NCBI GenBank assembly: GCA_000830275.1
Contig: CP010424.1
Coordinates: 240,001-272,000, forward strand
DNA length: 32,000 nucleotides
Direction: 5' to 3'
Source: an archaeon GW2011_AR10
Lineage (GTDB): Archaea; Iainarchaeota; Iainarchaeia; Iainarchaeales; GW2011-AR10
The position numbers and the translations under genes are program-made. Below the pieces are notes generated by a model. That model was given only the letters and a program-made list of their open reading frames with translations. It did not search any database and was not told the origin of the DNA. Of the stretch, positions 7,522-31,157 are shown one piece after another (position 1 is the first letter of the stretch; every line of letters begins with the position of its first letter).

Positions 7522-8214
7522 ATGGTTGAAGGCAAGCTTTCAGTAAGCGAAGCTGTAAGGGTGCTGATTGACAGCCATCCTCACATTAGGCACTCTATTT
7601 CTGAGGGGCTGGTAAACTACTCTGCCTTGTCCAGAAAGTTTTCTCCCGAGCTGGAGAAAAAACTGGGCAAAAAAGTCAACGAAGAATCCACCATTGTGGC
7701 AATTAAAAGGTATGCTGAGGAGCTCCAGAAAAAGGAGTTCTCTGACAAGATTTCAGAGCTGCTTTCACAGTCCACTATTACGCTTCAGGACGAAGTGTCT
7801 CATGCTTTGTTCAACAAAAACTCGAGGAGCTCTGAAGTGGTTGACTCAATGGCTTCAAAAACCGAATGGGGTTTAGGAGAAATCAGGATAGTTGTAACTG
7901 GTGCAAACAGGATTTTTGTCGTGCTGAAATCGAACAGGTTAAGCGAACTTGCAGGGCAACTTGAATCAGACTTGATTCATTTGAGAGAGCACCAGACACT
8001 TATTTCGGTTTCTGAGCCAGATGAAGCAAATATGACTTACGGGGTACTGAATGAATTAACTTCTGCCCTTGCAAAAAAAGGCATTAGCATTGAAGTAGTG
8101 AGCGTTCCACCAGACCTGCATTTTTTGGTTGACGACGAAGACTCGGAGCGGGCTTACAGGGCACTAAAAGAGCTGATTAAGCAGTCAAAGGAAGTTAACA
8201 ACAAAAAGAATTAG
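7522..8214 (+). CDS. ACT-domain protein with a putative N-terminal HTH (candidate small-molecule-sensing regulator)
   Basis: 230 aa. The C-terminal part, LISVSEPDEANMTYGVLNELTSALAKKGISIEVVSVPPDLHFLVDDEDSERAYRALKELI, resembles the aspartokinase-type ACT (ACT_7) pattern. The N-terminal part, SVSEAVRVLIDSHPHIRHSISEGLVNYSALSRKF, is HTH-like. Confidence 0.7.
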   Translation: MVEGKLSVSEAVRVLIDSHPHIRHSISEGLVNYSALSRKFSPELEKKLGKKVNEESTIVAIKRYAEELQKKEFSDKISELLSQSTITLQDEVSHALFNKNSRSSEVVDSMASKTEWGLGEIRIVVTGANRIFVVLKSNRLSELAGQLESDLIHLREHQTLISVSEPDEANMTYGVLNELTSALAKKGISIEVVSVPPDLHFLVDDEDSERAYRALKELIKQSKEVNNKKN

Positions 8215-9659
8215 TAAAGCCCTTTGGCAATCCTTTCAAGCCTCATGCCTTTTACTAGAATTTCTGGAGTAACCACAACTGCTTCTTGCCCCCATGCAAG
8301 TGTTGCCTTCCTTTCCTTGCTTAGCGCTTCAATGTTCTTGAAGCACCTCTCCAGGTTGTCATTAATCCTTAGAGTGTTAGGCACCAGAGCAGAAGCGATT
8401 TTCCCGTTCCTGATAATGTACGAATCTCCCCTCATTGTTGAGGTAAAGTCAGCAGAAGCAAGACCGTTAACAGGGTAAGAATACCATATTCTGCCAATAT
8501 ACAAACCGTTTTTTACCTCTGCCGGAAGCTCATCTTCCTTGAAGTCGCCTGCCTCCACAACAAGGTTAGTAGCTGCAATGCCTGGTTCAGAATCATGGTG
8601 CCTTCCGCCGCCGCCAAAACGGAACCCATTCCTCGAATTAAACCTTTTATCGCTTGAAAACTTTTTCGCATAATAGTCGTTTGCCAGAAAATTCACCAGC
8701 TTGCCGTTCCTTACAAGTTCCGTTCTCCCTGTTGCAAGGCCTTCATCTGTAACCCTTTTGGAGCCTATCTCGCCTGAAAGCAGGCCATCATCAAATATTG
8801 TTAGTTTTTCAGAGCCTATTACTTTGTCAAGCTTGTCAATGAAAGGGGAAGCCTTTGCATCAATGCTGCTCAAGCTGACTTCAAACCTGCTGTAAAACAG
8901 GTCTGCAACTGCAAGCCTTCCAAGCACGACATCGTAGGTGCCTGAGCCAACCGATTCAGCCTTAATTAATGCTTGCGCTTTTTCTGCAGATGTTTTTCCA
9001 GTCTCGTAAGTGTTGAGCTTGTTTAAGGCAGTGGCTGAATCAAACCACATTCCTGAAACATCTTTCTCCAGTTCAAGGATTGTTGTAAGGGTTGCCAAAG
9101 AAATACTGTTCTCGTCCCACTCGCTTACCCCATTCGAGTTTGCAACAGCAATTCTTTCAGCCAAGAAATCAACTTCTCCAGTAAGGTTAACGTTTTTCCT
9201 GAAGTCTTTTGCCTTCAGTGCATCAAAGGCCCCAGAAATGCAGGCATAAGCAGAATCAATGGCTTTTTCCTCGTCAAGCTCAAGAATTCTTTTATCAGCT
9301 TTAAGTGAAGCAGAAGGCTTTTCTCCTTGTGCCGGCAAGCCGTGAAAGTCCTTGTCAAGCACGCTGCTGGCTTTGGCTTTCTCGAAAGCAGACTTAACCG
9401 CTTCCATTGAAAGCTCCGAGTCCTCCTTGCCAAAACCAATTTTTCCGTTGTCAAACAAAACCCTTACACTTAACCCAAAGCCCTCCTGGCTTTTTGGTTC
9501 CTCCAACGCATTGCTGGGAATGTTGCTTGAATAACAAATCCTGAAAACGTTAAGCCTGTTAGAGGAAGCAAACACTTCCGCTTCCTTGACTCCCTGCTTT
9601 TTTTCAACTGCCCTCAGGCCTTCTTCAACAGCTGCTTTCAGTTCATTCAGCGAAATCAT
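8211..9659 (-). CDS. pmbA: TldE/PmbA-family metalloprotease partner subunit (no HExxxH motif)
   Basis: 482 aa with PmbA_TldD-family architecture and the Gly-rich block GFRFGGGGRHHDSEPGIAATNLVVEAG. No HExxxH motif was found. The gene starts 1 nt after the tldD stop. Confidence 0.85.
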   Translation of the reverse strand: MISLNELKAAVEEGLRAVEKKQGVKEAEVFASSNRLNVFRICYSSNIPSNALEEPKSQEGFGLSVRVLFDNGKIGFGKEDSELSMEAVKSAFEKAKASSVLDKDFHGLPAQGEKPSASLKADKRILELDEEKAIDSAYACISGAFDALKAKDFRKNVNLTGEVDFLAERIAVANSNGVSEWDENSISLATLTTILELEKDVSGMWFDSATALNKLNTYETGKTSAEKAQALIKAESVGSGTYDVVLGRLAVADLFYSRFEVSLSSIDAKASPFIDKLDKVIGSEKLTIFDDGLLSGEIGSKRVTDEGLATGRTELVRNGKLVNFLANDYYAKKFSSDKRFNSRNGFRFGGGGRHHDSEPGIAATNLVVEAGDFKEDELPAEVKNGLYIGRIWYSYPVNGLASADFTSTMRGDSYIIRNGKIASALVPNTLRINDNLERCFKNIEALSKERKATLAWGQEAVVVTPEILVKGMRLERIAKGLY

Positions 9660-9660
9660 T

Positions 9661-11223
9661 TCAAACAGCCCCTGTTTCCTCTACATGCCCGCCGCTTACA
9701 ACTGCCTTTGCCCTCAAGTGTGGTCCGCCGTTTGAAACCTTCATTGACTGCATCGGGGTTCCTTTCCCGCAGTTTGGAATATTGAACAGCCTGAAGTCAT
9801 CGGCTAATGCATCAATTGAATTGAAGAAAGTGTAGGAATCCCCAGTAATGCCTCCCTGCCTGTAAAGCTTTCCAATTTCCCCGTTTTTGATTTCAAACAG
9901 CTTCCAGCAAGTAATCTTGAAATTCTGCCTTGTCTCGCCAATTGAAGGAGTTTTCTGCCCAACCAAATAATAGCCTTCTTTTGTTTCCTCAAACAGTTCC
10001 TCTTTTTTCCATTTCCCAGGAGCAATTGCGGTGTTGTTCATTCTAATCAGTGGCATGCTTGAGGCAACATTTGCGCGCATCCCGCCATTTGGTTCGCTGC
10101 CGAGAATTGAAGCGGTTTCCCTGCTGTTTAGGAACTCCCTTAAAATTCCTTTGTCAATGTGGACAACCCTTTTTGCCTTCACTCCTTCGTCGTCGTACTT
10201 GTAGTGCCCGTAACCTTTAAGCGTTGGGTCAGAGAACACGGTCAAAAGCTCTGCGCCTACTCTTTGCCCGATTCTGTTTTCCTCCATGCTGTTGAACCAC
10301 CAAGCCCTTCCTGCCCATGCAGTCTCCTTTTTTAGCGCCCTGTCTGCTTCGCTTGGATGCCCTGTTATTTCGTGGCTGAGCAATGCATTAAACCAAGGGT
10401 CAGTTATAACTGTTACAGGCTTGCTTGTCGTCTTCATTGCAGGAGCATTGCTTACCTCAATTGTTCCATCAGCCAAGTAAGAAGCAAAGTCCTCAAAGCT
10501 TTTCTCGAACTCGTTTGCCCCATCAAGTACCTCTAACCCTGCATAGCCCCCAACCCAGTCATAGAATGTTTCAACAGCTTTTCCTTTGGCTGCAACAAAA
10601 ATGAATCCCTGCGTTAGTGCTTTGGACTGGTCAATCAATGCTCCTTCGCTGCTTGCAAAAATTTTTCTGTTCAAGCCGGTAACAATGCTTATGTCGTTGC
10701 TTGCAATGCCTTTCCTTTTTGACAGCTCAACTGAAAGCGATTCGCTTCTCTTCACAACTTCCTCAAGAGAAAAGTCCCGCGGGCTTTTCTTGAACTCAGC
10801 TTTAACTGTGTCTTGGAATACTTCAATTGGCGCAAGCTCTGTTTTTCCAACTGATTCCCCAAAAAAACCGTACTTTTTTTTCAGATTTTTTTTCTGTTCC
10901 GCGCTCAGCTTTGCCCTCTTTAGCGCGGTTTTCATCATTTCCTTCAGTTCTTTTCCAATTGACTCGAGCTGTTTGGCGCCGAGCTCCTTGCCTGCTTGGC
11001 CAGCTGCAACAACGCTGTTGCTTTTAGCGTAAACCCTGACACCAGCGCTTAACCCGAAGTCTTCTGTGGCTCCCCGGATGCTGCCATTGAATGCATTGGC
11101 CCCCTTTCCTTCAAACACCTCAACCCTTGCGTCAGCATAGTGAACGCCGGAAGCAGAGAATTCCCTAACTGCCTTTTCGATGGCATCCTTTGATGCATCC
11201 AGCCTCTCGACGGTTACCTTCAT
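9661..11223 (-). CDS. tldD: TldD-family zinc metalloprotease
   Basis: 520 aa. It has the HExxxH motif in LSHEITGHPSEADR and a C-terminal block GGMRANVASSMPLIRMNNTAI typical of the family. GGGGTG lies about 9 nt upstream of the ATG. Confidence 0.9.
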   Translation of the reverse strand: MKVTVERLDASKDAIEKAVREFSASGVHYADARVEVFEGKGANAFNGSIRGATEDFGLSAGVRVYAKSNSVVAAGQAGKELGAKQLESIGKELKEMMKTALKRAKLSAEQKKNLKKKYGFFGESVGKTELAPIEVFQDTVKAEFKKSPRDFSLEEVVKRSESLSVELSKRKGIASNDISIVTGLNRKIFASSEGALIDQSKALTQGFIFVAAKGKAVETFYDWVGGYAGLEVLDGANEFEKSFEDFASYLADGTIEVSNAPAMKTTSKPVTVITDPWFNALLSHEITGHPSEADRALKKETAWAGRAWWFNSMEENRIGQRVGAELLTVFSDPTLKGYGHYKYDDEGVKAKRVVHIDKGILREFLNSRETASILGSEPNGGMRANVASSMPLIRMNNTAIAPGKWKKEELFEETKEGYYLVGQKTPSIGETRQNFKITCWKLFEIKNGEIGKLYRQGGITGDSYTFFNSIDALADDFRLFNIPNCGKGTPMQSMKVSNGGPHLRAKAVVSGGHVEETGAV

Positions 11224-12351: not shown

Positions 12352-13692
12352 ATGAAGAAAACCTTTGTTTTGCTTGCATTCTTTTTTGGTTTGGGCTATG
12401 TTTTTGGCGCGGGAAACATTAGCATATACCCTGCGCTTGAGGACAAAATTGTGGGCCAAAACCTTGACCTTAACATAGTTGCCGGCAATGTGAACAACTT
12501 TTACGGTTACCAGTTTGACTTTCAGTATGACCCAAGCAAGCTTGGCTTTAATTCAATTGAATTCAACAGGGATGTGCTTGGCAGCACTGTTGCCCCGCAG
12601 CAGCAGTTCTGCACTTCGTCTGGCGACTGGAATATTGGCTTAGGCTTTGTAAAAAATGTTGCCTGCACCAGAACGGTTGCCGGGGAAATAAACCCTGCAA
12701 GCGGTGCGCTCGCAACACTAAAGTTCAATGTGATTGGGCAGGGCTCAAGCAGCGTTAACTTAACCAAAGTGCTGGTTTCAGATTCCTCTCCTTCAGCTGT
12801 CAGCGTTTCAGTGCCGTTCCCCACAGCTTTGGTAAGGGGCTGCTCCCGCATTGAATGCTCATCAAGTGCGGAATGCAATGACTTCAATGCCTTGACCACT
12901 GACATATGCCTTAATGCAAGTACCTGCATTTCAAGTTGTTCCAATGTTGCAATAGAGCAGTGCTCTGAAGGCCAGATAACAAGCCAGTGCGTTTGCGGCG
13001 GCAGCGTTTACTCTTCCGGTTTCTGCTGCAGCAACACCTTCACGCAGCCCTGCGTTTCAGATTCACAGTGCAATGATGCTGATGTATGCACAATTGATTC
13101 CTGTTACCAGCCGGCTACTTGTGGTGCGCAGTGCATTAACACTCCAAGCGGTGCGTGCAGCCCTGCAACCTACTGTGGTGACGGCATATGCAGCAGCGGA
13201 GAAAACAAAAAGAATTGCCCTCAGGACTGCGGTCAGCGTGGAAAGCCTAGGACTTCTTCAGCCAGCGCCATCGTCGGAAGCAACGGCTATGCTGCTTCAT
13301 CAATTGACTTCCAGTTCGAGCAGTTAAGCTTGGGCTCGGCTTCAGGAGCCAAAGTATCATTAATCCATGAATTCGAGGAGCCTGAAAGGTTTTTGGTTGA
13401 ACTGCACGTGCTCAAGGACAACAAGCTTGTTTTCTTCACTTCAGAAACAACCCCGCTTCTTGATGCCGGCGAAGAGTTTGTTCTGGCGTTTTCTGAGCGT
13501 TGGGTGCCTGATGAAACAGGCCAATACCTTGCAACTGTTGTTCTTTCAGATGCTGAAGGGCAACTGGTGTATGATGTGCGTTCATTCAATTTCAACGTCA
13601 CAACTATTTCTGGCATATCCTTCTTTGTTGGAGTGCTTTTGGTCATAATTGTGGTGGTTTACTTTGCAGCCAGAAGCAGAAATAGCAAGTGA
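12352..13692 (+). CDS. Membrane-anchored surface protein: signal peptide, cohesin-like domain, Cys-rich repeat region, Ig/CARDB-like region, C-terminal TM anchor
   Basis: 446 aa. The signal peptide is MKKTFVLLAFFFGLGYVFGA. Residues ~21-160 (ISIYP..VGQNLDLNIVAGNVNNFYGYQFDFQYDPSKL...GALATLKFNVIGQGSS) read like a type I cohesin. Residues 164-293 contain 22 Cys (counted), with the repeated motifs C-x5-C-N-D-x(5,10)-C and CGDGICSSGENKKNCPQDCG. The C-terminal TM is ISFFVGVLLVIIVVVYFAA followed by RSRNSK. Confidence 0.8.
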   Translation: MKKTFVLLAFFFGLGYVFGAGNISIYPALEDKIVGQNLDLNIVAGNVNNFYGYQFDFQYDPSKLGFNSIEFNRDVLGSTVAPQQQFCTSSGDWNIGLGFVKNVACTRTVAGEINPASGALATLKFNVIGQGSSSVNLTKVLVSDSSPSAVSVSVPFPTALVRGCSRIECSSSAECNDFNALTTDICLNASTCISSCSNVAIEQCSEGQITSQCVCGGSVYSSGFCCSNTFTQPCVSDSQCNDADVCTIDSCYQPATCGAQCINTPSGACSPATYCGDGICSSGENKKNCPQDCGQRGKPRTSSASAIVGSNGYAASSIDFQFEQLSLGSASGAKVSLIHEFEEPERFLVELHVLKDNKLVFFTSETTPLLDAGEEFVLAFSERWVPDETGQYLATVVLSDAEGQLVYDVRSFNFNVTTISGISFFVGVLLVIIVVVYFAARSRNSK

Positions 13693-13722: not shown

Positions 13723-14211
13723 ATGATGAGAGAGGCACAAGGCAGTATTGAGTATCTTCTCCTAATTGGCGGCGCAATGCTTCTTGCTGTAATTGTGTTA
13801 TCATTAATTTCTTCAATTGCTGTAAGCGGGGTTTCAGAGCTCCTCTCCCAAATTGGCATTATTGGAGACATTTTTAAGGGCTTTTCCTCGTGCGATTCAA
13901 GCTTTGAGTTAGAGCGGCACCTTCTCATAATCCACGGCGACTCCGCTAATATCAACGTTTCGCTGGATGGAGCAGCAGAGGTAAGGAGAATCAGGCTGAA
14001 TCCAAGCATTTTTGGGCAGGGGATAAACTACGCTGTTTCTGTTGATTCTGCTGTTGTCGGCTCAGGAAATGATTCCACTGAAAGCATCGTTTTTGATGAT
14101 TTGAGCATTTCAGTTAATCCCCCGGAATTTAACCTAAAAATTGACAAAACTGATCCAAATGTTCCGAAGATTGAAGTGGATGTGGAAACAATAGTTCTAT
14201 TGTGCAATTAA
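13723..14211 (+). CDS. Archaeal type IV pilin-like protein (class III signal peptide)
   Basis: 162 aa. The N-terminus MMREAQGSIEYLLLIGGAMLLAVIVLSLI is the archaeal prepilin/class III signal pattern: a short charged leader, Q, then a hydrophobic helix. The gene starts 30 nt after the cohesin gene, with GTGTGA just upstream. Confidence 0.8.
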   Translation: MMREAQGSIEYLLLIGGAMLLAVIVLSLISSIAVSGVSELLSQIGIIGDIFKGFSSCDSSFELERHLLIIHGDSANINVSLDGAAEVRRIRLNPSIFGQGINYAVSVDSAVVGSGNDSTESIVFDDLSISVNPPEFNLKIDKTDPNVPKIEVDVETIVLLCN

Positions 14212-14263: not shown

Positions 14264-15355
14264 ATGGACAAAAAGCAGCTCTTGGAGCAGTTTAAGGACT
14301 TTGCAGCTGGTCTTTCAAAAAAAGACAGAATTGCCATACTGCACGACTCGGATGCTGACGGCTTAAGCGCTGCGGTTATTGCCGCAAAAGCGGTTGAAAG
14401 ACTTTCAGGAAAAAAGCCTGTTCTGGTTTTAACGCAGGGTCACAGCCCGGTTTCAATTCAGGAGCAGACAATTGCGGTATTAAAAAAGAAAAAAATTTCA
14501 AAGCTTATAACAGTTGACTTGGCCGTTTGCCAGAACCCGGAAACAGTTAGAAAAGTTGAAAAGTTTGCCCGGCTGCTTGTAATAGACCACCACAAGCTAT
14601 ACAACAACATTTCCTCAAAAAAAACCGTTTTTCTTAATGCAAAGTTTTTTGCCTCTTTTGACCCAAGCATGTACGTTACCTCAAAGTTCTGCTTTGACTT
14701 GTTCAAAGAGGTTGTTGACTTGCGCGGCCTTGAATGGGTCGCATGCATTGGAATTCTGGGTGACAGCGCGCTTGAGAAATGGGAAAAGTTTGTAAAGGCC
14801 TCTCTTAAATCGGAGAAAATTTCAATGGCTGACTTTGAAATTCTTGTTGGATTGGTTGGGGCAGTTGAAGTAGTGGACAAAACAAAAATGAAGAACCTTT
14901 TCAGTGAGTTCTTCAATGCGGAAAACCCGAAGCAGCTGCTGAAGTCAAAGTTCCTGAAATTCAGCAAGATAGTGGAGATGGAAAAGAAAAAAATCCTGGG
15001 TGGGTTTGACAAAAAAGCAGAGTTTTTTCCAGAGCGCCAGCTTGTGTTTTTCCAGTTTGAATCAAAGTTGGGCATAAAGTCTGCAGTAATAAACGAGCTT
15101 AGCAGCAGGCGTTTCCCAAATTCTACGGTCATTGTTGTGCAGGAACATGAAGAAGGATTTCTCACAATCAGCGCGAGGAGACAGGACTTCAAGGTTAGGG
15201 TAAATGACCTCCTGGAAAAAGCAGTTAAGCCGCTTGAAAACGCTTTTGCCGGCGGCCACATTCCTGCAGCTGGCGGAAAAATACAGAAAAGCGATTTAAA
15301 AAAATTCAAGGAGAACATCCTCAAAGAGCTCAAGCCGCAGAAACCAAAGAAATAA
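14264..15355 (+). CDS. DHH/DHHA1-family phosphoesterase (RecJ-like or NrnA-like)
   Basis: 363 aa with the DHH motifs ILHDSDADG, TVD, LVIDHH and GDS, and the DHHA1 motif GGHIPAAGG near the C-terminus. Confidence 0.85.
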   Translation: MDKKQLLEQFKDFAAGLSKKDRIAILHDSDADGLSAAVIAAKAVERLSGKKPVLVLTQGHSPVSIQEQTIAVLKKKKISKLITVDLAVCQNPETVRKVEKFARLLVIDHHKLYNNISSKKTVFLNAKFFASFDPSMYVTSKFCFDLFKEVVDLRGLEWVACIGILGDSALEKWEKFVKASLKSEKISMADFEILVGLVGAVEVVDKTKMKNLFSEFFNAENPKQLLKSKFLKFSKIVEMEKKKILGGFDKKAEFFPERQLVFFQFESKLGIKSAVINELSSRRFPNSTVIVVQEHEEGFLTISARRQDFKVRVNDLLEKAVKPLENAFAGGHIPAAGGKIQKSDLKKFKENILKELKPQKPKK

Positions 15356-15380: not shown

Positions 15381-16181
15381 ATGGGCAGAGCGCAGGGAGC
15401 ATTAGAGTACCTTCTTTTGATTGGCGGCGCAATTCTGGTTGCAGTGATAGTTGTTAGCGTTCTCTCCGGAATTGGCGGTGGCGGCGGCACTGAAGCGCGC
15501 AAAGTTGCGGCTGATGCATTATGCGCCAAGTATGGCAATCAGGTGCTATGTAACGGAAGGCAGGTTCAATTGCAGGGTGAAACCGTAACCTGCATATGGA
15601 AATCGACCGGAGGAGTTTGCAGGGCTAATTTGGTTGAAATATCAGTTCCAGTTGCATTGCAGGCAAATTCAGCTGGAAGCGGTTCTGAACTCATCCCTCC
15701 ACAGGCAGCCTATGCACAGATCTATGTTAATGGAGTGCAGCGCGCGAACAACACAAGGGGCCTGAACATTGTTGTAGTGAATGAGACAACTGGCGCATAC
15801 ATTAATGATGATACTTTTGACACCTATGATGCGTCGTGTTCTGCGCTGGTTCCACTAACAAATTTCATTAACAGTATTTCTGCTGGAAGAATTGTTTTGA
15901 TGGCTGCAAGGGATGAGTGGGCTAGGGATTTCAAGCAGACTGGTGGATGCCCCGTCGCCCAAAGGGATGCAGCTTACACTGCTCTGGAATCAATTCATGC
16001 GGACACGTTGGTGAATATTCCTGATTTTCCTTTCTCTCCGCCATGGGACGCTGGAAACTGCGATTATGCTTCCTCTTACGCAATGATTTCAGTTAAGGGT
16101 TCCGGCCTTTACACGGAGCAGTACAGCCAAAACAGAAATAATTGCAGTGGAGTTCCTGTTACAGTTTCATACTCGCCATAA
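15381..16181 (+). CDS. Type IV pilin-like protein with a C-terminal FAM3/ILEI (PANDER-like) domain
   Basis: 266 aa. The class III signal is MGRAQGALEYLLLIGGAILVAVIVV, followed by a G5 linker. Residues ~95-245 include RGLNIVVVNETTGAYINDDTFDTYDASCSALVPLTNFINSISAGRIVLMAARDEWARDF. This parallels the FAM3/ILEI core as I recall it (RGINVA..N..TGEV....FD.W......F..FL..I..GTIVLM..YDDG). Confidence 0.8.
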   Translation: MGRAQGALEYLLLIGGAILVAVIVVSVLSGIGGGGGTEARKVAADALCAKYGNQVLCNGRQVQLQGETVTCIWKSTGGVCRANLVEISVPVALQANSAGSGSELIPPQAAYAQIYVNGVQRANNTRGLNIVVVNETTGAYINDDTFDTYDASCSALVPLTNFINSISAGRIVLMAARDEWARDFKQTGGCPVAQRDAAYTALESIHADTLVNIPDFPFSPPWDAGNCDYASSYAMISVKGSGLYTEQYSQNRNNCSGVPVTVSYSP

Positions 16182-16192
16182 GCCAGCATTAG

Positions 16193-17167
16193 TCAATCAA
16201 CAATTACTTCCTGTCTTTCATCTTTTGCTTTTGCAGCGGCTTTCTCAATGTTTTTCGGCCAGCCCCTGCCTTTTTCCACTACTTTCTCGGAAATTCCGCG
16301 TGGCCCCAATTTTTTTGAAACGTATTCTTTTACCTTCTTTGAGTCAATTGATTTGCATGATGAAACAGCAACCAGCGCAAAGCCTTTTTCTGGAAAAGTA
16401 TGAATTGCTATGTGGCTTTCAGCTATCACCACTACTCCAGAAATTCCAGAATCCTGGGTGTTCTTTGCCTTGTAATTGAAAACATTTGGTTCAGAGATTT
16501 TTTTAAGTTCAAGAATTGAAGGCATTTCGTTAAGCATCTGCCTCACAACCTTAATGCTGTCAAGTTTTTCCTTTTTGCAGCCAACGCACTGCAGCAATAT
16601 CTGCTTTGTGTAAAAGAAATCTGTTGAGTGGATAAAGAACGGCATCAGCCTGTCAGCGAAATTGTAGCCCAAGTCGAACAATAGCAGGGCAAAGAAGTAA
16701 ACCCAGTTGCTGGTTATTACGCCGATTGCAAGCGCTCCTGCTTCAAGGATTAAGCGGCTTTTAACAGCCAGCCCAAAAACTTTTCCTGTTTCAATTCCCT
16801 TTTCACTTCTTCTGTCAGCCCAGTCATTCAGTTTTTCATCAGCAAAGCCCAGCAGTACAAACAGCGCCATGAATGGAATGCTTACCTGCGGGAGGCCAAA
16901 AGCCAGAGTTGTTGCAATCAGTGCTGCAACCGCGAGCTGGTGCGCCCTATCATCAATTTTTCCTGCGATTAAAACACTTATTGTGATTGCAAGAACCAAT
17001 GTTGCAAATTCAGTGGACTGTGCAACAAGGAATCCTGCAAGAAAACCGTAAGTAATGCCAAGCAGGTTTTTCGCAAAGCCGTGCCATACAAACGGCTCAT
17101 CCACGAGATTGTCAGTGAGCTTTGTGATAAAACCTGTTACAAAAGCCAAGGCAAAGCCTAGAACCAT
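16193..17167 (-). CDS. speH: Fusion protein: N-terminal polytopic membrane domain plus C-terminal pyruvoyl-dependent S-adenosylmethionine decarboxylase-like (SpeH/SpeD class 1) domain
   Basis: 324 aa. Residues ~1-180 form about 6-7 hydrophobic helices with no motif I recognise. Residues ~185-300 read KQILLQCVGC...GISGVVVIAESHIAIHTFPEKGFALVAVSSC and match small prokaryotic AdoMetDC, including the Glu250-Ser251 autoprocessing site (Ser codon at 16415-16417). The start overlaps the dys stop by one base (TAATG, 17165-17169), and GAGGA lies 7 nt upstream. Confidence 0.8.
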   Translation of the reverse strand: MVLGFALAFVTGFITKLTDNLVDEPFVWHGFAKNLLGITYGFLAGFLVAQSTEFATLVLAITISVLIAGKIDDRAHQLAVAALIATTLAFGLPQVSIPFMALFVLLGFADEKLNDWADRRSEKGIETGKVFGLAVKSRLILEAGALAIGVITSNWVYFFALLLFDLGYNFADRLMPFFIHSTDFFYTKQILLQCVGCKKEKLDSIKVVRQMLNEMPSILELKKISEPNVFNYKAKNTQDSGISGVVVIAESHIAIHTFPEKGFALVAVSSCKSIDSKKVKEYVSKKLGPRGISEKVVEKGRGWPKNIEKAAAKAKDERQEVIVD

Positions 17168-18078
17168 TATTTTTCCTCTTTGATTGCTGCAATTATCAAT
17201 GGAAATAGTATTGTCGCATCCCCAACAACCGTAACTGATTTTCCTTTCTCCTTTATTTTTCCCCAGCTTTTTGCTTCGTGCGTTCTCGCGCCGCTGAGCG
17301 AGCCATCATATTCTGAGGCGGTTGAAACGTAAACAGCCAAGTCTAGGCCGCCCCTTACAATTGAGGCTCCGATTACATGGTGCTTTGAGATTCCGCCACC
17401 GAGAATGATTCCGGAAGTTTTTTCTGCGTTAAGCACCAACTCCGAGAATTCCTTCATGTCCTTGGTCACGTCAACTGAAAAATCAGGAAAATCCTGCTTG
17501 AAGAAGTACATCTGCAGGCCAATTGCTCCATCAGTTATGCCTGGGCAGAACACAGGAATGTTGTTTTTTGCGCACCAGTAAAGGAAACTGCTTTCATTCA
17601 GCTTTCCGCCAATGAACTTGTTGAGTTCGCTTGGAGAAACAGTTTTGTTTTCCGCGTGCAATTCTTTAAGCATTGGCTGGAACTTTTTTTCAAGCAGTTC
17701 GTAATGAGAGTTCGGCACAAAAATGTTGCCTATCCTGTTAATTCCTTTCCTGTGCAGTTTAACGTCGTCAGCATCAAAGCTTCCCTTATAGTACGGGTTG
17801 AAGGACTTCATGATGTCGTGGTCAATTGCCCCGGCAGTTGTAATAACTGCATCGACAAACTTTTCCTTACACATCTGCGAAATAACCCCGCGCAGCCCAG
17901 AGGCAACCATGTTTGCGGTGAATGATAAAAAAACAGTGTGCTGTTTTCTCTTCATTTCCCTGATGATTTCAACTGCTTCAGCTAAATGGGTTGCCTGGAA
18001 GCCAGTGCTTTCAAGCTGTTTCACAAGCCCTGAAGCACTTGCACCTGCCCTCAGTTCAATGTCCTTGATTTTGTCCAT
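17167..18078 (-). CDS. dys: Deoxyhypusine synthase
   Basis: 303 aa. Family blocks include VFLSFTANMVASGLR, ITTAGAIDHD and GGGISKHH, plus the catalytic-lysine block HEAKSWGKI. GGTGG lies 5-9 nt upstream of the ATG. Confidence 0.93.
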   Translation of the reverse strand: MDKIKDIELRAGASASGLVKQLESTGFQATHLAEAVEIIREMKRKQHTVFLSFTANMVASGLRGVISQMCKEKFVDAVITTAGAIDHDIMKSFNPYYKGSFDADDVKLHRKGINRIGNIFVPNSHYELLEKKFQPMLKELHAENKTVSPSELNKFIGGKLNESSFLYWCAKNNIPVFCPGITDGAIGLQMYFFKQDFPDFSVDVTKDMKEFSELVLNAEKTSGIILGGGISKHHVIGASIVRGGLDLAVYVSTASEYDGSLSGARTHEAKSWGKIKEKGKSVTVVGDATILFPLIIAAIKEEK

Positions 18079-28198: not shown

Positions 28199-30124
28199 TT
28201 AGTCAATTCTCTTGTTTTTGACTGTGAACAGCAAAAGAACCAGTGATGGAATCACGAGCAAAAGAATTTCAGGGGCCAAATTCAAGAGCGTGTTTCCTTT
28301 CACAAGCACCTCTGTCACAATAAGAATTGAAATATTCAAAGGAAGTTTTTCAGCAATGCTTGAAACAATTTCGCTCATCAGCTCTACTGGCAGAATTATT
28401 CCGCTCAGGAAGATAAGCGGGATCATTATTACAAGTGCGGTCAGCAGCGTGGTTGACTGAAGCCGCGTAAAGTTTGTAATGAACAGCCCAAGTGCAACAA
28501 ACGCAAAGCTTGCAAGAGCAAATGCCACATACAACTCGGCTATGTTTCCTGCAATTGGAACATTAAATGAAATAATTGACACGACAAGGATTATTGTTGC
28601 AAGGAAAACCGAAAAAATTATCTGCCCAAAAATTTTCCCTATGAAGAGTTTGTATTTTTTGGTTGTTGAAAGAACCATTCTGAGGTAAGCTCCCTGGATT
28701 TTTTCGTTAATGAAGACAACAGCGCTCAAAAGAATTGCAGTAAGCATTATCACGATCGCGATAAGGGAAGGCACAAGAATGGTGAACTTGTCAACATTGT
28801 AAGCGCTGAGTTTGTTTATTATCACAGGGTTTGAAAGAAACTGAGGGTCAAGGTTGCCAAGCTCATCAAGCGAATCAATAAATGAGGCCATCAGTTCCTT
28901 TGATTCTTCCAGGTCAGAGTCAACGTCTTTCTTGGACTCAAGGGAATCATCAATCAGTGCTATAATCTCATCAATTGTTGAGCCGATGCTTGAGAGCTGC
29001 TCGTTTATGCTGTCAAGGTCAGTGAAAGTGCTGTCAATTTCCCCTTTAAGGTCCTTAAGGCTGGCATCGGTTGTTTCAAGCTTGCCTTGAATTGCAATTA
29101 CTGACTCTTGCATTTCAACTATTTCCTGCTCTGCGCTGTTCATTTCAGCTTCTGCAGCCTCAATGTCAGACCTAGCGCTGGAAATTTCTGCTCTTGCGCT
29201 CCTAATTTCAAGCAATGCTTCCTCTATTTGCGGGCTGCCCCCCGGAATCTGCGAATTAACCTCATCAAGGTCCTGCTCGATTTCTGCAAGCTGCCTGTCG
29301 CGTTCCTCAAGCCTTGTTACAGCATCCCTTCCTTTCTGCCTGTAATCAGCAATGCTTAGCCTGTGCTGTTCAAGCCTTTCTGGAAGGCCCTCAATTTCTC
29401 CTGAAAAAAATTCCACATCAGAAGTGTACTGGTCAAGCTTTGCCTTTATCACATCGTTTCTGTTCCTCTGGCTGTTCAGCACTTCGCGCATTTCGTCAAT
29501 GTTGATTGCGGTAACACTCTCATTCAAATCAAGCAAGGTCAGCTCGCTTTCATCAAGTTGCTGCAGGAATTTTTCTACTCTTTCAACTTCCCCCTGCAAA
29601 TCGGATTTAATTTGTGAGAGGTTCTCCCAAATTTCTTGCAGCAACTGCAGTGAAGTCTGGAAGCCAACGCTCTGCACCGCCTGCCTTGCAACATCAAAGA
29701 AAAAAAGCGACGTAGCAATGTTCGAGTTGTCAAACACCACATCAATTACATATCTTCCATATCTTGTTTCTGGCTCGTGCACAATAATTCCAACCTTGCT
29801 TTGCCTCTCATAAATAATCCGCTCAACGTCATCCGAAGAAACCGCTCTTAAAATTGTTATTTTGTTTGTGTCCTCAAGCTGCTTGATGAATTTCTCTGAG
29901 TCAAAACCCCTGATGTTTGCAGGAGCATAAACCGCTATCTCAAGGTTTTCAAGGGTTGATTTTCCTGTAAAAGCAAGGCCAATAATGAAAACAACAATTA
30001 TCAGCATCAACAAAATCAGGCCAAGCACAAACCATTGTGACTTGATTACGGCAATTTCTTTTGCAGCAATTCTTGCAATCCTTGCTCCAGGCAGCTTTTC
30101 CAGCAGCTCTTTCAATGCAGGCAT
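28199..30124 (-). CDS. ABC-2 type permease with a large coiled-coil ectodomain (YhgE/Pip-like architecture)
   Basis: 641 aa. It has an N-terminal TM (FVLGLILLMLIIVVFIIGLAF) and a ~400-aa acidic, heptad-like region (..LQGEVERVEKFLQQLDESELTLLDLNES...EIRSARAEISSARSDIEAAEAEMNSAEQEIVEMQES..). Five C-terminal TM helices are typical of ABC-2 permeases. The gene starts 1 nt after the ATPase stop. Confidence 0.8.
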   Translation of the reverse strand: MPALKELLEKLPGARIARIAAKEIAVIKSQWFVLGLILLMLIIVVFIIGLAFTGKSTLENLEIAVYAPANIRGFDSEKFIKQLEDTNKITILRAVSSDDVERIIYERQSKVGIIVHEPETRYGRYVIDVVFDNSNIATSLFFFDVARQAVQSVGFQTSLQLLQEIWENLSQIKSDLQGEVERVEKFLQQLDESELTLLDLNESVTAINIDEMREVLNSQRNRNDVIKAKLDQYTSDVEFFSGEIEGLPERLEQHRLSIADYRQKGRDAVTRLEERDRQLAEIEQDLDEVNSQIPGGSPQIEEALLEIRSARAEISSARSDIEAAEAEMNSAEQEIVEMQESVIAIQGKLETTDASLKDLKGEIDSTFTDLDSINEQLSSIGSTIDEIIALIDDSLESKKDVDSDLEESKELMASFIDSLDELGNLDPQFLSNPVIINKLSAYNVDKFTILVPSLIAIVIMLTAILLSAVVFINEKIQGAYLRMVLSTTKKYKLFIGKIFGQIIFSVFLATIILVVSIISFNVPIAGNIAELYVAFALASFAFVALGLFITNFTRLQSTTLLTALVIMIPLIFLSGIILPVELMSEIVSSIAEKLPLNISILIVTEVLVKGNTLLNLAPEILLLVIPSLVLLLFTVKNKRID

Positions 30125-30125
30125 T

Positions 30126-31157
30126 TCAGTTCCTCAGTTGTTGTCCTGTAACATTCATGAAAACATCCTCTAAATCTGGCTCCTTGATTCTGGATGAAAC
30201 AATCTCGTAACCTTCTTTTACAAGCCATTCTGTGATGCTGGCAATTTTTTCAAGCGCGCGTTCCGGAAGTAAAGAAATTATTAAGTAGTTTCCAGCTGCA
30301 TTCACGTCACTGCCTTTCAGCGTGCCTTTAATCGCGTCAACTATTATTTTTTCAGGCACCTTGTTTAGTTTCACTACCAGCACTTTAACCCCGCCAAAGC
30401 TTGCGATTAGTTCCTGCGGCGTTCCGCTTAAGAGCACTTTTCCGTCGCTTATCAGCCCAATGCGGTTGCACAAGTGCTCTGCTTCATCCATGTAATGGGT
30501 TGTAATGCAGATGGTTTTGCCTTGGTGCTTTAGCTCAAAAATTTTTTCCCAGAAGTGCTCTCTCACCTTTGGGTCCAACCCAACAGTTGGCTCATCCATG
30601 AAAATAACTTTAGGGTTATTCACGAGAGAGCACGCAATGTTCAGCAGCCTCTTGTAGCCGCCGCTCAAATTTTCTGCCTGCCTTTTCCTGAAGCTGCTTA
30701 ACCCCAGCCATTCAATCAGGTAATCAGTCCGCTTTTGAAGTTCTGCTCCAGTTAAGCCGTACATTGCTCCAAAAAACTTAAGGTTCTGTTCAACTGTGAA
30801 GCTGTAAAAAAAGCTTGTTTCCTGCGGTACAATCGCAATAAACCCTTTTATTTTGTCATAGTTTGCTGTTAGTTCTGCTCCAGAAAAATTTACTGTTCCC
30901 GAATCGGCTTTTCCAAGGCCTGTCATGATTTTTGCAAGCGTTGATTTGCCCGCACCATTCGGCCCAATAAGGCCGAACACCTCTCCCTGCATTATGTCAA
31001 GCGAGACATCGTTGAGTGCCTGAAAGTTTCCATAGAATTTGTTTATGCTTCTAATCTGAACAATTGGTGCAGCTGCTGCGTAACCTCTTTTTTCTTGAGT
31101 TTTTGCTTCAGCCCCTTTAACCGCTTCCTTTGCTTGAACTGCGTTTTCAGCAGGCAT
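30126..31157 (-). CDS. ABC transporter ATP-binding protein (ABC-2/DrrA-like, with C-terminal accessory domain)
   Basis: 343 aa with Walker A GPNGAGKST, signature LSGGYKRLL, Walker B VIFMDEPTVGLD and an H-loop in ITTHYMDEAE. A ~30-aa Ala/Lys-rich N-terminal extension is present. Confidence 0.93.
   Translation of the reverse strand: MPAENAVQAKEAVKGAEAKTQEKRGYAAAAPIVQIRSINKFYGNFQALNDVSLDIMQGEVFGLIGPNGAGKSTLAKIMTGLGKADSGTVNFSGAELTANYDKIKGFIAIVPQETSFFYSFTVEQNLKFFGAMYGLTGAELQKRTDYLIEWLGLSSFRKRQAENLSGGYKRLLNIACSLVNNPKVIFMDEPTVGLDPKVREHFWEKIFELKHQGKTICITTHYMDEAEHLCNRIGLISDGKVLLSGTPQELIASFGGVKVLVVKLNKVPEKIIVDAIKGTLKGSDVNAAGNYLIISLLPERALEKIASITEWLVKEGYEIVSSRIKEPDLEDVFMNVTGQQLRN

Follow-up and report, generated by a model that had tools for sequence, protein, structure and literature searches.

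Bacterial type IV pilins can be modular, as in Streptococcus sanguinis, where PilC carries a concanavalin-A-like lectin module and PilB a vWA module (PMC8179133, PMC9934059). The survey of such modular pilins (Raynaud et al. 2021) was keyed on the bacterial motif IPR012902 and does not mention archaea. In archaea, class III (pilin-type) signals are not confined to filament subunits, the bindosome being one example (PMC4858521), and LamG surface proteins have been linked to type IV pilus loci in Micrarchaeota Mia14 (PMC5498576). Among proteins with an ILEI (FAM3/PANDER) domain, POMGnT1 binds beta-linked N-acetylglucosamine (GlcNAc) via Arg129, Asp179 and Arg207, and GlcNAc and other sugars are also ligands of FAM3C, FAM3A and nematode Fam3L2, while nematode Fam3L1, which lacks the equivalents of Asp179 and Arg207, shows no sugar binding (PMC9802357). 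Arg129 and Asp179 have been called the essential two, and streptococcal phage adhesion devices carry a POMGnT1-stem-like carbohydrate-binding module (PMC9437275). Here we describe a gene that joins an archaeal class III signal to an ILEI domain, located at positions 15381..16181 (+) of a 32,000-nucleotide stretch (the window) of the small groundwater archaeon GW2011_AR10 (AR10; Diapherotrites / Candidatus Iainarchaeum sp.), on a contig of 1,241,428 bp.

The class III–ILEI fusion in AR10 is real and extremely rare. On balance, and with somewhat better than even confidence, we read its product as a modular type IV pilin-like surface protein, in which the ILEI head would sit on a minor or tip pilus subunit and bind a glycan. 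The parts of the gene on which this reading draws are the following.

15381..16181, + strand: whole gene of a putative 266-residue modular pilin-like protein (open reading frame and translation; AJF59796.1, QT03_C0001G0295)
15381..15392, + strand: predicted leader peptide M-G-R-A (PF04021 at residues 3-27; [KR][GA]-Q pattern in family alignments)
15393..15470, + strand: hydrophobic N-terminal helix (QGALEYLLLIGGAILVAVIVVSVLSG), predicted as helix at residues 7-32 and resembling alpha1-N of type IV pilins
15471..15488, + strand: Gly-rich break IGGGGG (from the sequence; the model breaks the helix at residues 33-34, GGGGG being residues 32-36)
15489..15635, + strand: four-cysteine carrier module, residues 37-85 (alignment of 19 carriers; AlphaFold2 model)
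15636..15698, + strand: linker between carrier and head, residues 86-106 (pLDDT, the model's per-residue confidence, below 50 at residues 89-104 of the full-length model; unconserved beyond about residue 85)
15699..16160, + strand: complete ILEI/FAM3/PANDER (GG-type) domain, residues ~107-260 (Pfam, PDB sequence matches, jackhmmer envelopes, model)

The open reading frame, its N-terminus, the GGGGG run, the four cysteines and the ILEI-like stretch all stand as first transcribed in an earlier, sequence-only reading of this DNA, whose assignment of an archaeal class III signal was borne out by Pfam. The PF04021 (Class_IIIsignal) profile scores 26.9 bits over residues 3-27, above its curated cut-off of 23.7 bits. 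The N-terminus, MGRAQGALEYLLLIGGAILVAVIVV, consists of MGRA followed by QGALEYLLLIGGAILVAVIVVSVLS, with a short basic leader, Gln at +1, Glu at +5 and a hydrophobic stretch; cleavage by a prepilin peptidase is predicted, from this sequence, after A4, with Q5 as residue +1. The motif that defines PF04021 consists of a short basic leader with [KR][GA] at its end, then Gln and Glu at +1 and +5 and about 20 hydrophobic residues. In two family alignments, of 14 and 19 homologues, Q5, E9 and the hydrophobic core do not vary, and in the 19 carrier N-termini the invariant positions comprise Q5, L8, E9, Y10, L11-13, G15, G16, A17, C48, C57, C71 and C80. Both the five-glycine linker and the four-cysteine segment noticed at first reading are thus present, the latter with all four cysteines invariant. 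The whole protein has eight cysteines, these four in the N-terminal segment and C153, C190, C227 and C255 in the head, and three N-x-S/T sequons.

The N-terminal part recurs with other heads, and for this reason we consider the protein a modular pilin. In a word-indexed search of 5.8 billion clusters, relatives matched only over the first ~85-100 residues and continued into unrelated C-terminal domains (P0002-P0012 and P0163-P0169). The heads found on this carrier include beta-helix (PF13229), Laminin_G_3 (PF13385), CBM_4_9 (PF02018), PF06439, PKD, Big_7 and FN3-like domains. The closest carriers, P0163 and P0164, share 39-52% of their residues with the target where the N-terminal stretches align, and keep the four-cysteine module; P0163, the nearest of all, has an FN3-like head. 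AlphaFold2 modelled residues 1-104 with a mean pLDDT of 75.9 and block means of 85-89 over residues 41-80, yielding helices at residues 7-32 and 35-51 (the second amphipathic) and a three-stranded sheet (strands 61-64, 67-74 and 79-83), a modelled topology that appears pilin-like.

The target therefore has the layout of a modular protein, with carrier (residues 1-85), linker (86-106) and ILEI domain (107-260), the last also occurring independently in ~179 other proteins of many architectures. As in the modular pilins of S. sanguinis, a short N-terminal pilin module and a linker precede a domain that also exists apart from pili, ligand (here glycan) binding is proposed for a low-abundance, probably tip-located subunit, and, as in bacterial modular pilins generally, one carrier is reused with many heads. 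Unlike them, the target has an archaeal PF04021 signal with Gln at +1 and gives no match to the bacterial N_methyl Pfam family, and its carrier is a lineage-specific four-cysteine mini-module without detectable similarity to solved pilins. Since a motif of the IPR012902 type is absent, the target would be an archaeal analogue that falls outside the surveyed set of modular pilins. With other Diapherotrites/Iainarchaeota class III proteins it shares signal, lineage and presumed export route; unlike its sister carrier proteins it bears a rare head, ILEI being found in two clusters as against dozens with beta-helix or LamG heads among the matches listed.

The head itself is a bona fide ILEI/FAM3 domain. 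PF15711 (ILEI) matches at E = 5.9e-14 and 52.8 bits against a curated cut-off of 27 bits, with its core at residues 126-208 (nt 15756-16004), which at the level of sequence is far beyond chance and upholds the ILEI/FAM3 assignment made earlier. A phmmer search of PDB sequences retrieved FAM3C (E = 1.9e-5), the POMGnT1 stem (8.6e-5), FAM3B (2.5e-4), FAM3A and, weakly, TMEM2, and the FAM3C alignment reproduced the block-for-block likeness described in the earlier reading. The limits of the domain need adjustment: the whole domain of ~150 residues is there as claimed, but jackhmmer places it at residues ~107-260, slightly C-terminal of the 95-245 first given.

Structure prediction led to the same family. 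An AlphaFold2 model of the head, built from a 40-row alignment, has block-mean pLDDT values mostly between 84 and 98, with 62-72 around residues 211-230 and 251-260. All 21 Foldseek matches in the PDB at E ≤ 1e-3 were FAM3B, the POMGnT1 stem, FAM3C, FAM3A or TMEM2, single-domain monomer chains giving target-normalised TM (template modelling) scores of 0.68-0.80 and the next match having an E value of ~0.9; an unrelated fold did not emerge from this check, in agreement with the fold first proposed. Against a viral library the head model matched 31 proteins, including phage proteins named 'ILEI', T4-like gp35 hinge connectors, tail-fibre and receptor-binding proteins, which agrees with the POMGnT1-stem-like module of streptococcal phage adhesion devices. 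With FAM3A-D, the POMGnT1 stem, CEMIP/TMEM2 and the phage gp35/receptor-binding family the target shares PF15711, the fold and the equivalents of Arg129 and Asp179. As in phage tail fibres (PMC9437275), its ILEI domain would be the outermost part of an appendage of the adhesion type, if the proposed placement on a filament holds. Unlike most of the family it has Ala at Arg207, His at Gly206 and four extra head cysteines, and its fusion partner is an archaeal pilin signal, a combination seen in one other protein only.

To gauge the rarity of the fusion we searched residues 90-266 exhaustively with phmmer against 1.84 billion cluster representatives, which returned 179 proteins at E ≤ 1e-3. The strongest non-self match has 39% identity to the head, and identities over the matched stretches stay at or below 46%. 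Most of these relatives are either long proteins with 2-6 tandem ILEI domains or single-domain proteins of bacteria that bear a Sec or lipoprotein signal; PEP-CTERM anchors occur in some. P0014-P0027 and similar long proteins have 4-6 ILEI domains in tandem and lack an obvious signal peptide; P0014 reaches 2371 residues, with six ILEI copies and an Acyl_transf_3 domain. The closest ILEI relatives carry metagenomic names, with one Zixibacteria and one RHS protein among them. When the ILEI region was used by itself in a word-indexed search, only the target appeared at E ≤ 10, the relatives having come from the exhaustive HMMER search, and tblastn of the ILEI region against 78 related genome loci detected no other ILEI.

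Among the 150 matches listed from the exhaustive ILEI search, the class III motif also occurs in P0099 only, and a profile search of 5.8 billion clusters, with fusions ranked first, found PF15711 and PF04021 together only in P0001, the target's own cluster, and in P0099. The latter is a protein of 297 residues encoded beside an AsnC regulator on a 1.7-kb contig, with 28% full-length identity to the target; it lacks the four-cysteine carrier, has Cys-rich insertions and scores 27.1 bits for ILEI, against the cut-off of 27. Residues common to the two proteins lie both in the pilin N-terminus and along the ILEI head. As to whether the fusion is already commonly annotated, each domain is labelled automatically in NCBI or UniRef; in the databases searched, the fusion itself was found in these two clusters only. 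A literature search found no description of an ILEI domain on an archaeal pilin, in keeping with what the sequence-only reading had supposed; nor did it find an ILEI head on any pilin, in a search that left the architecture list of the bacterial survey itself unchecked. The link to episymbiosis that had been floated is unsupported, with only two fusions in the databases searched and AR10 ranking among the metabolically better-equipped DPANN genomes (PMC8561730); genes for nicotinamide adenine dinucleotide (NAD), pyridoxal phosphate and purine biosynthesis lie within the window.

The head cysteines C190 and C227 have counterparts in a subgroup of lipoprotein-type ILEI proteins of bacteria (P0148, P0157), which hints at the subfamily from which the target head came. 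Both of these proteins have lipoprotein-type signals; in both, and in two further rows of alignment A2, the D-E motif is followed by an insertion, and an additional Cys stands just before the Y-R-x-S-W strand. Most likely, the head was grafted onto the lineage's carrier by domain shuffling.

Whether the head binds sugar was judged from the POMGnT1 contact residues, with frequencies counted over 287 ILEI domain copies. Positions 43, 93 and 121 of PDB chain 5ggj_A correspond to POMGnT1 Arg129, Asp179 and Arg207 (offset 86) and carry the expected residues, position 121 being the Arg of GWRDTWAF. The equivalent codons of the target are as follows.

15756..15758, + strand: R126, equivalent of POMGnT1 Arg129, conserved (alignments; Arg in 82% of copies)
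15912..15914, + strand: D178, equivalent of POMGnT1 Asp179, conserved (alignments; Asp in 78% of copies)
16068..16070, + strand: A230, at the position of POMGnT1 Arg207, not conserved (alignment A2; Arg in 71% of copies)

The proposal of a lectin head is thus supported by two of the three POMGnT1 contacts, R126 and D178, but not by the third, which is Ala230; P0099, the other pilin-type fusion, retains the Arg207 equivalent. We consider glycan binding by the target head plausible from the residues present. With R126 and D178 kept and A230 and H206 deviating, binding is not assured and its specificity cannot be inferred.

Several observations weigh against the reading of the protein as a glycan-binding pilus subunit. 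Within the head these are the replacement of the third ligand Arg by A230 and the His at position 206, where 99% of the 287 copies have Gly. As Fam3L1, which lacks two residues of the triad, fails to bind sugars (PMC9802357), binding by the target may likewise have been lost or altered. The head could then serve protein–protein contact, such as homo-oligomerisation, or act as a structural or spacer domain; we regard this as rather improbable. FAM3C does dimerise, the ILEI dimer (PDB 5lc4) being among the Foldseek matches, and the Arg is also missing from many repeats of multi-ILEI proteins. Nevertheless, the equivalents of Arg129 and Asp179, the two residues singled out as essential (PMC9437275), are kept, as are 9 of the 11 near-invariant family positions of alignment A2, and the prokaryotic and viral uses of the fold are surface or host-recognition proteins.

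In the carrier, the modelled fold gave no significant Foldseek match to any solved pilin in the PDB (best E = 2.0), so that a pilin fold cannot be claimed from structure, and the module is very small for the globular domain of a pilin. Selection on the gene (dN/dS) cannot be assessed because there is no variation among assemblies. At the level of the locus, the 32-kb window contains no T2SSE, T2SSF or A24 gene, leaving the target outside any pilus operon. The operon of L090/L091, found by a metagenome scan with a relative's T2SSE, is complete and of matching GC content, and the L091 sample also contains an AR10 contig; it was rejected as the pilus operon of AR10 when an exact look-up identified it as that of another Diapherotrites metagenome-assembled genome (MAG).

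Type IV pili have been reported for a set of compared reference genomes, AR10 among them (PMC8561730). In the lineage, a scan of GTDB genomes with the pattern EYLLLIGGA retrieved 150 relatives, most of the named ones being Candidatus Iainarchaeum/Diapherotrites MAGs, and an open reading frame with a GxxGSGKT[TS] Walker A motif occurs in 45 of the 78 loci fetched, in most cases 2-4 kb upstream on the same strand. In L003, and likewise in the complete genome of Forterrea multitransposorum (L045), Pfam assignments give, in this order, T2SSE, two T2SSF, one or more class III pilins, Peptidase_A24 with Arc_PepC and further class III proteins. L090 has the same gene order, under the public names CpaF family, T2SS F family, class III signal peptide-containing and prepilin peptidase. 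In Iainarchaeota the operon is conserved in position and order, with T2SSE, two separate T2SSF, 1-4 tandem small pilins, A24 with Arc_PepC and 2-3 pilin-like genes with a Q-x-S-I-E motif; upstream lies an open reading frame of ~585-650 codons in L003, L013, L020 and L090 (threonine--tRNA ligase in L090), and an RFC-small-subunit-like frame instead in L033 and L045. On five further contigs (L024, L048, L052, L072, L075) the archaeal pilin N-terminus occurs in MAGs filed as Bacteroidetes, Chloroflexi, Falkowbacteria or Thaumarchaeota; these are probably mis-binned Diapherotrites contigs.

The N-terminus of the target falls in the same sequence class as those of the small pilins encoded in the operons of these relatives, which argues for the same assembly route. 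This bears on a rival explanation, in which the protein is a cell-surface receptor outside filaments, with the class III signal serving export and membrane or pseudopilus anchoring and the ILEI domain capturing soluble or polymeric carbohydrate. The target gene stands alone among housekeeping genes, outside a type IV pilus operon, and the head is bulky beside the operon pilins (the target has 266 residues, the pilin-like open reading frames near the ATPase a median of 144). A tiny carrier without detectable similarity to the globular domains of solved pilins, and sister proteins with CBM4_9 and LamG heads typical of substrate binding, would likewise suit a receptor, and the bindosome provides a precedent for class III signals outside filaments. 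With the Sulfolobus bindosome the target shares an archaeal pilin-type signal on a carbohydrate-related extracellular domain and, as presumed for the target, a dependence on type IV pilus-like assembly. It differs in host, a DPANN archaeon, in a head whose Foldseek matches are not of the periplasmic-binding-protein type found on ABC substrate-binding proteins, in having no adjacent transporter (the ABC-2 genes at 28199-31157 are 12 kb off, on the opposite strand) and in an N-terminus that matches the lineage's own operon pilins. Weighing both sides, we find a non-filament receptor unlikely, though well short of negligible.

If the protein is a modular pilus subunit, as we favour, the precursor would enter the membrane through its hydrophobic N-terminal helix, and an A24 prepilin peptidase would cut off MGRA to leave Gln at +1. 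Machinery of the T2SSE/T2SSF type would then extract the subunit and incorporate it, at low abundance, into a type IV pilus, where it would be a minor or tip component, a role suggested by a 17-kDa head that cannot pack like operon pilins of 90-170 residues. Held outside the cell, the ILEI head, presumably stabilised by disulfides, could recognise a glycan of another cell, of a polymer or of a particle in a pocket formed around R126 and D178. The specificity would probably be unlike that of POMGnT1, given that the third ligand residue is Ala.

A last explanation, that the gene is an artefact or decaying (a chance open reading frame, a chimeric assembly or a pseudogene), is effectively refuted by intact identical copies and public records, and we give it almost no credence. 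One sign in its favour comes from an NCBI MAG, GCA_013332025.1, in which the gene is called as two open reading frames of 148 and 97 residues; a base is unresolved where the split falls, giving an X in the translation, and the lengths differ ahead of this X, so that the split was read as an assembly gap. The 801-nt gene is intact on the 1.24-Mb AR10 contig; four further, independent assemblies, taken from several samples, have it in the same synteny and with 100% nucleotide identity, while a fifth differs by 2 nt. Both domains also score above curated thresholds, and the head folds confidently in the model. AJF59796.1 is annotated as 'hypothetical protein QT03_C0001G0295', an identical MAG copy was automatically named 'class III signal peptide-containing protein', and the UniRef name of one truncated copy is 'ILEI/PANDER domain-containing protein'; a scan of the target protein with NCBIfam gave no match.

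The target closes a co-directional group of four genes, in which the DHH/DHHA1 protein (14264-15355) directly precedes it and two surface-type candidates lie further upstream.

12352-13692, + strand: cohesin-domain protein of 446 residues, secreted-looking (PF00963, 34.6 bits)
13723..14211, + strand: second class-III-signal protein, 162 residues, beginning MMREAQGSIEYLLLIGGAMLLAVIV (PF04021 19.1 bits, below the cut-off of 23.7; six-frame motif scan)

These two may form a small surface-protein gene group. The second, AJF59794.1, is annotated as hypothetical and has neither the four-cysteine carrier nor a recognisable head domain; it is possibly a paralogous pilin-like protein of the target's co-directional group.

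On its other side the target adjoins a gene for S-adenosylmethionine decarboxylase (AdoMetDC), and the rest of the window consists of housekeeping genes, among them NucS, NadA/NadC/aspartate dehydrogenase/NMNAT, PdxS/PdxT, two TldD/PmbA paralogues, PurL/S/Q/F/D, deoxyhypusine synthase, AdoMetDC and an ABC-2 transporter. In the AdoMetDC gene (16193-17167, -) the PF02675 domain (residues 190-299) is fused behind an N-terminal stretch of ~190 residues that resembles several transmembrane helices, under a public annotation as plain AdoMetDC. This gene and that of deoxyhypusine synthase (17167-18078, -) overlap by base 17167, suggesting a polyamine/hypusine operon whose AdoMetDC is anchored in the membrane. 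At 8211-11223 (-), the adjacent TldD/PmbA metallopeptidase paralogues (482 and 520 residues) are followed by a 228-residue protein without a family match. No tRNA genes were found in the 32-kb window, and scans of it for promoters and terminators stayed at background level, the sigma-70-type promoter model not being applicable to archaea.

The significance of the fusion is limited, as it is rare (two clusters), its design is known from bacteria and both of its domains are machine-annotated. A carrier family with swappable heads in Iainarchaeota is of more interest than the single ILEI case. We tentatively propose, at clearly less than even confidence, that these archaea have 'plug-and-display' pilins, in which a two-disulfide mini-carrier presents swappable adhesin heads on type IV pili and thereby sets partner or substrate specificity, the ILEI head having been captured horizontally from bacteria or phages. 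If true, this system would be the first archaeal counterpart of the bacterial modular pilins and the first case of a pilus-borne FAM3-fold lectin. The target protein would also add a surface appendage of archaea to the settings of the FAM3/ILEI fold, which is familiar above all from secreted proteins of metazoans and from the POMGnT1 stem; together with the use of the fold in phage tail fibres, this would support cell-surface glycan recognition as its general role. How ultrasmall DPANN archaea recognise surfaces, polymers and partner cells is poorly understood, with type IV pili as the usual suspects; the carrier family, in which one export and assembly module is combined with differing heads, offers concrete and testable candidates for the determinants of this specificity.

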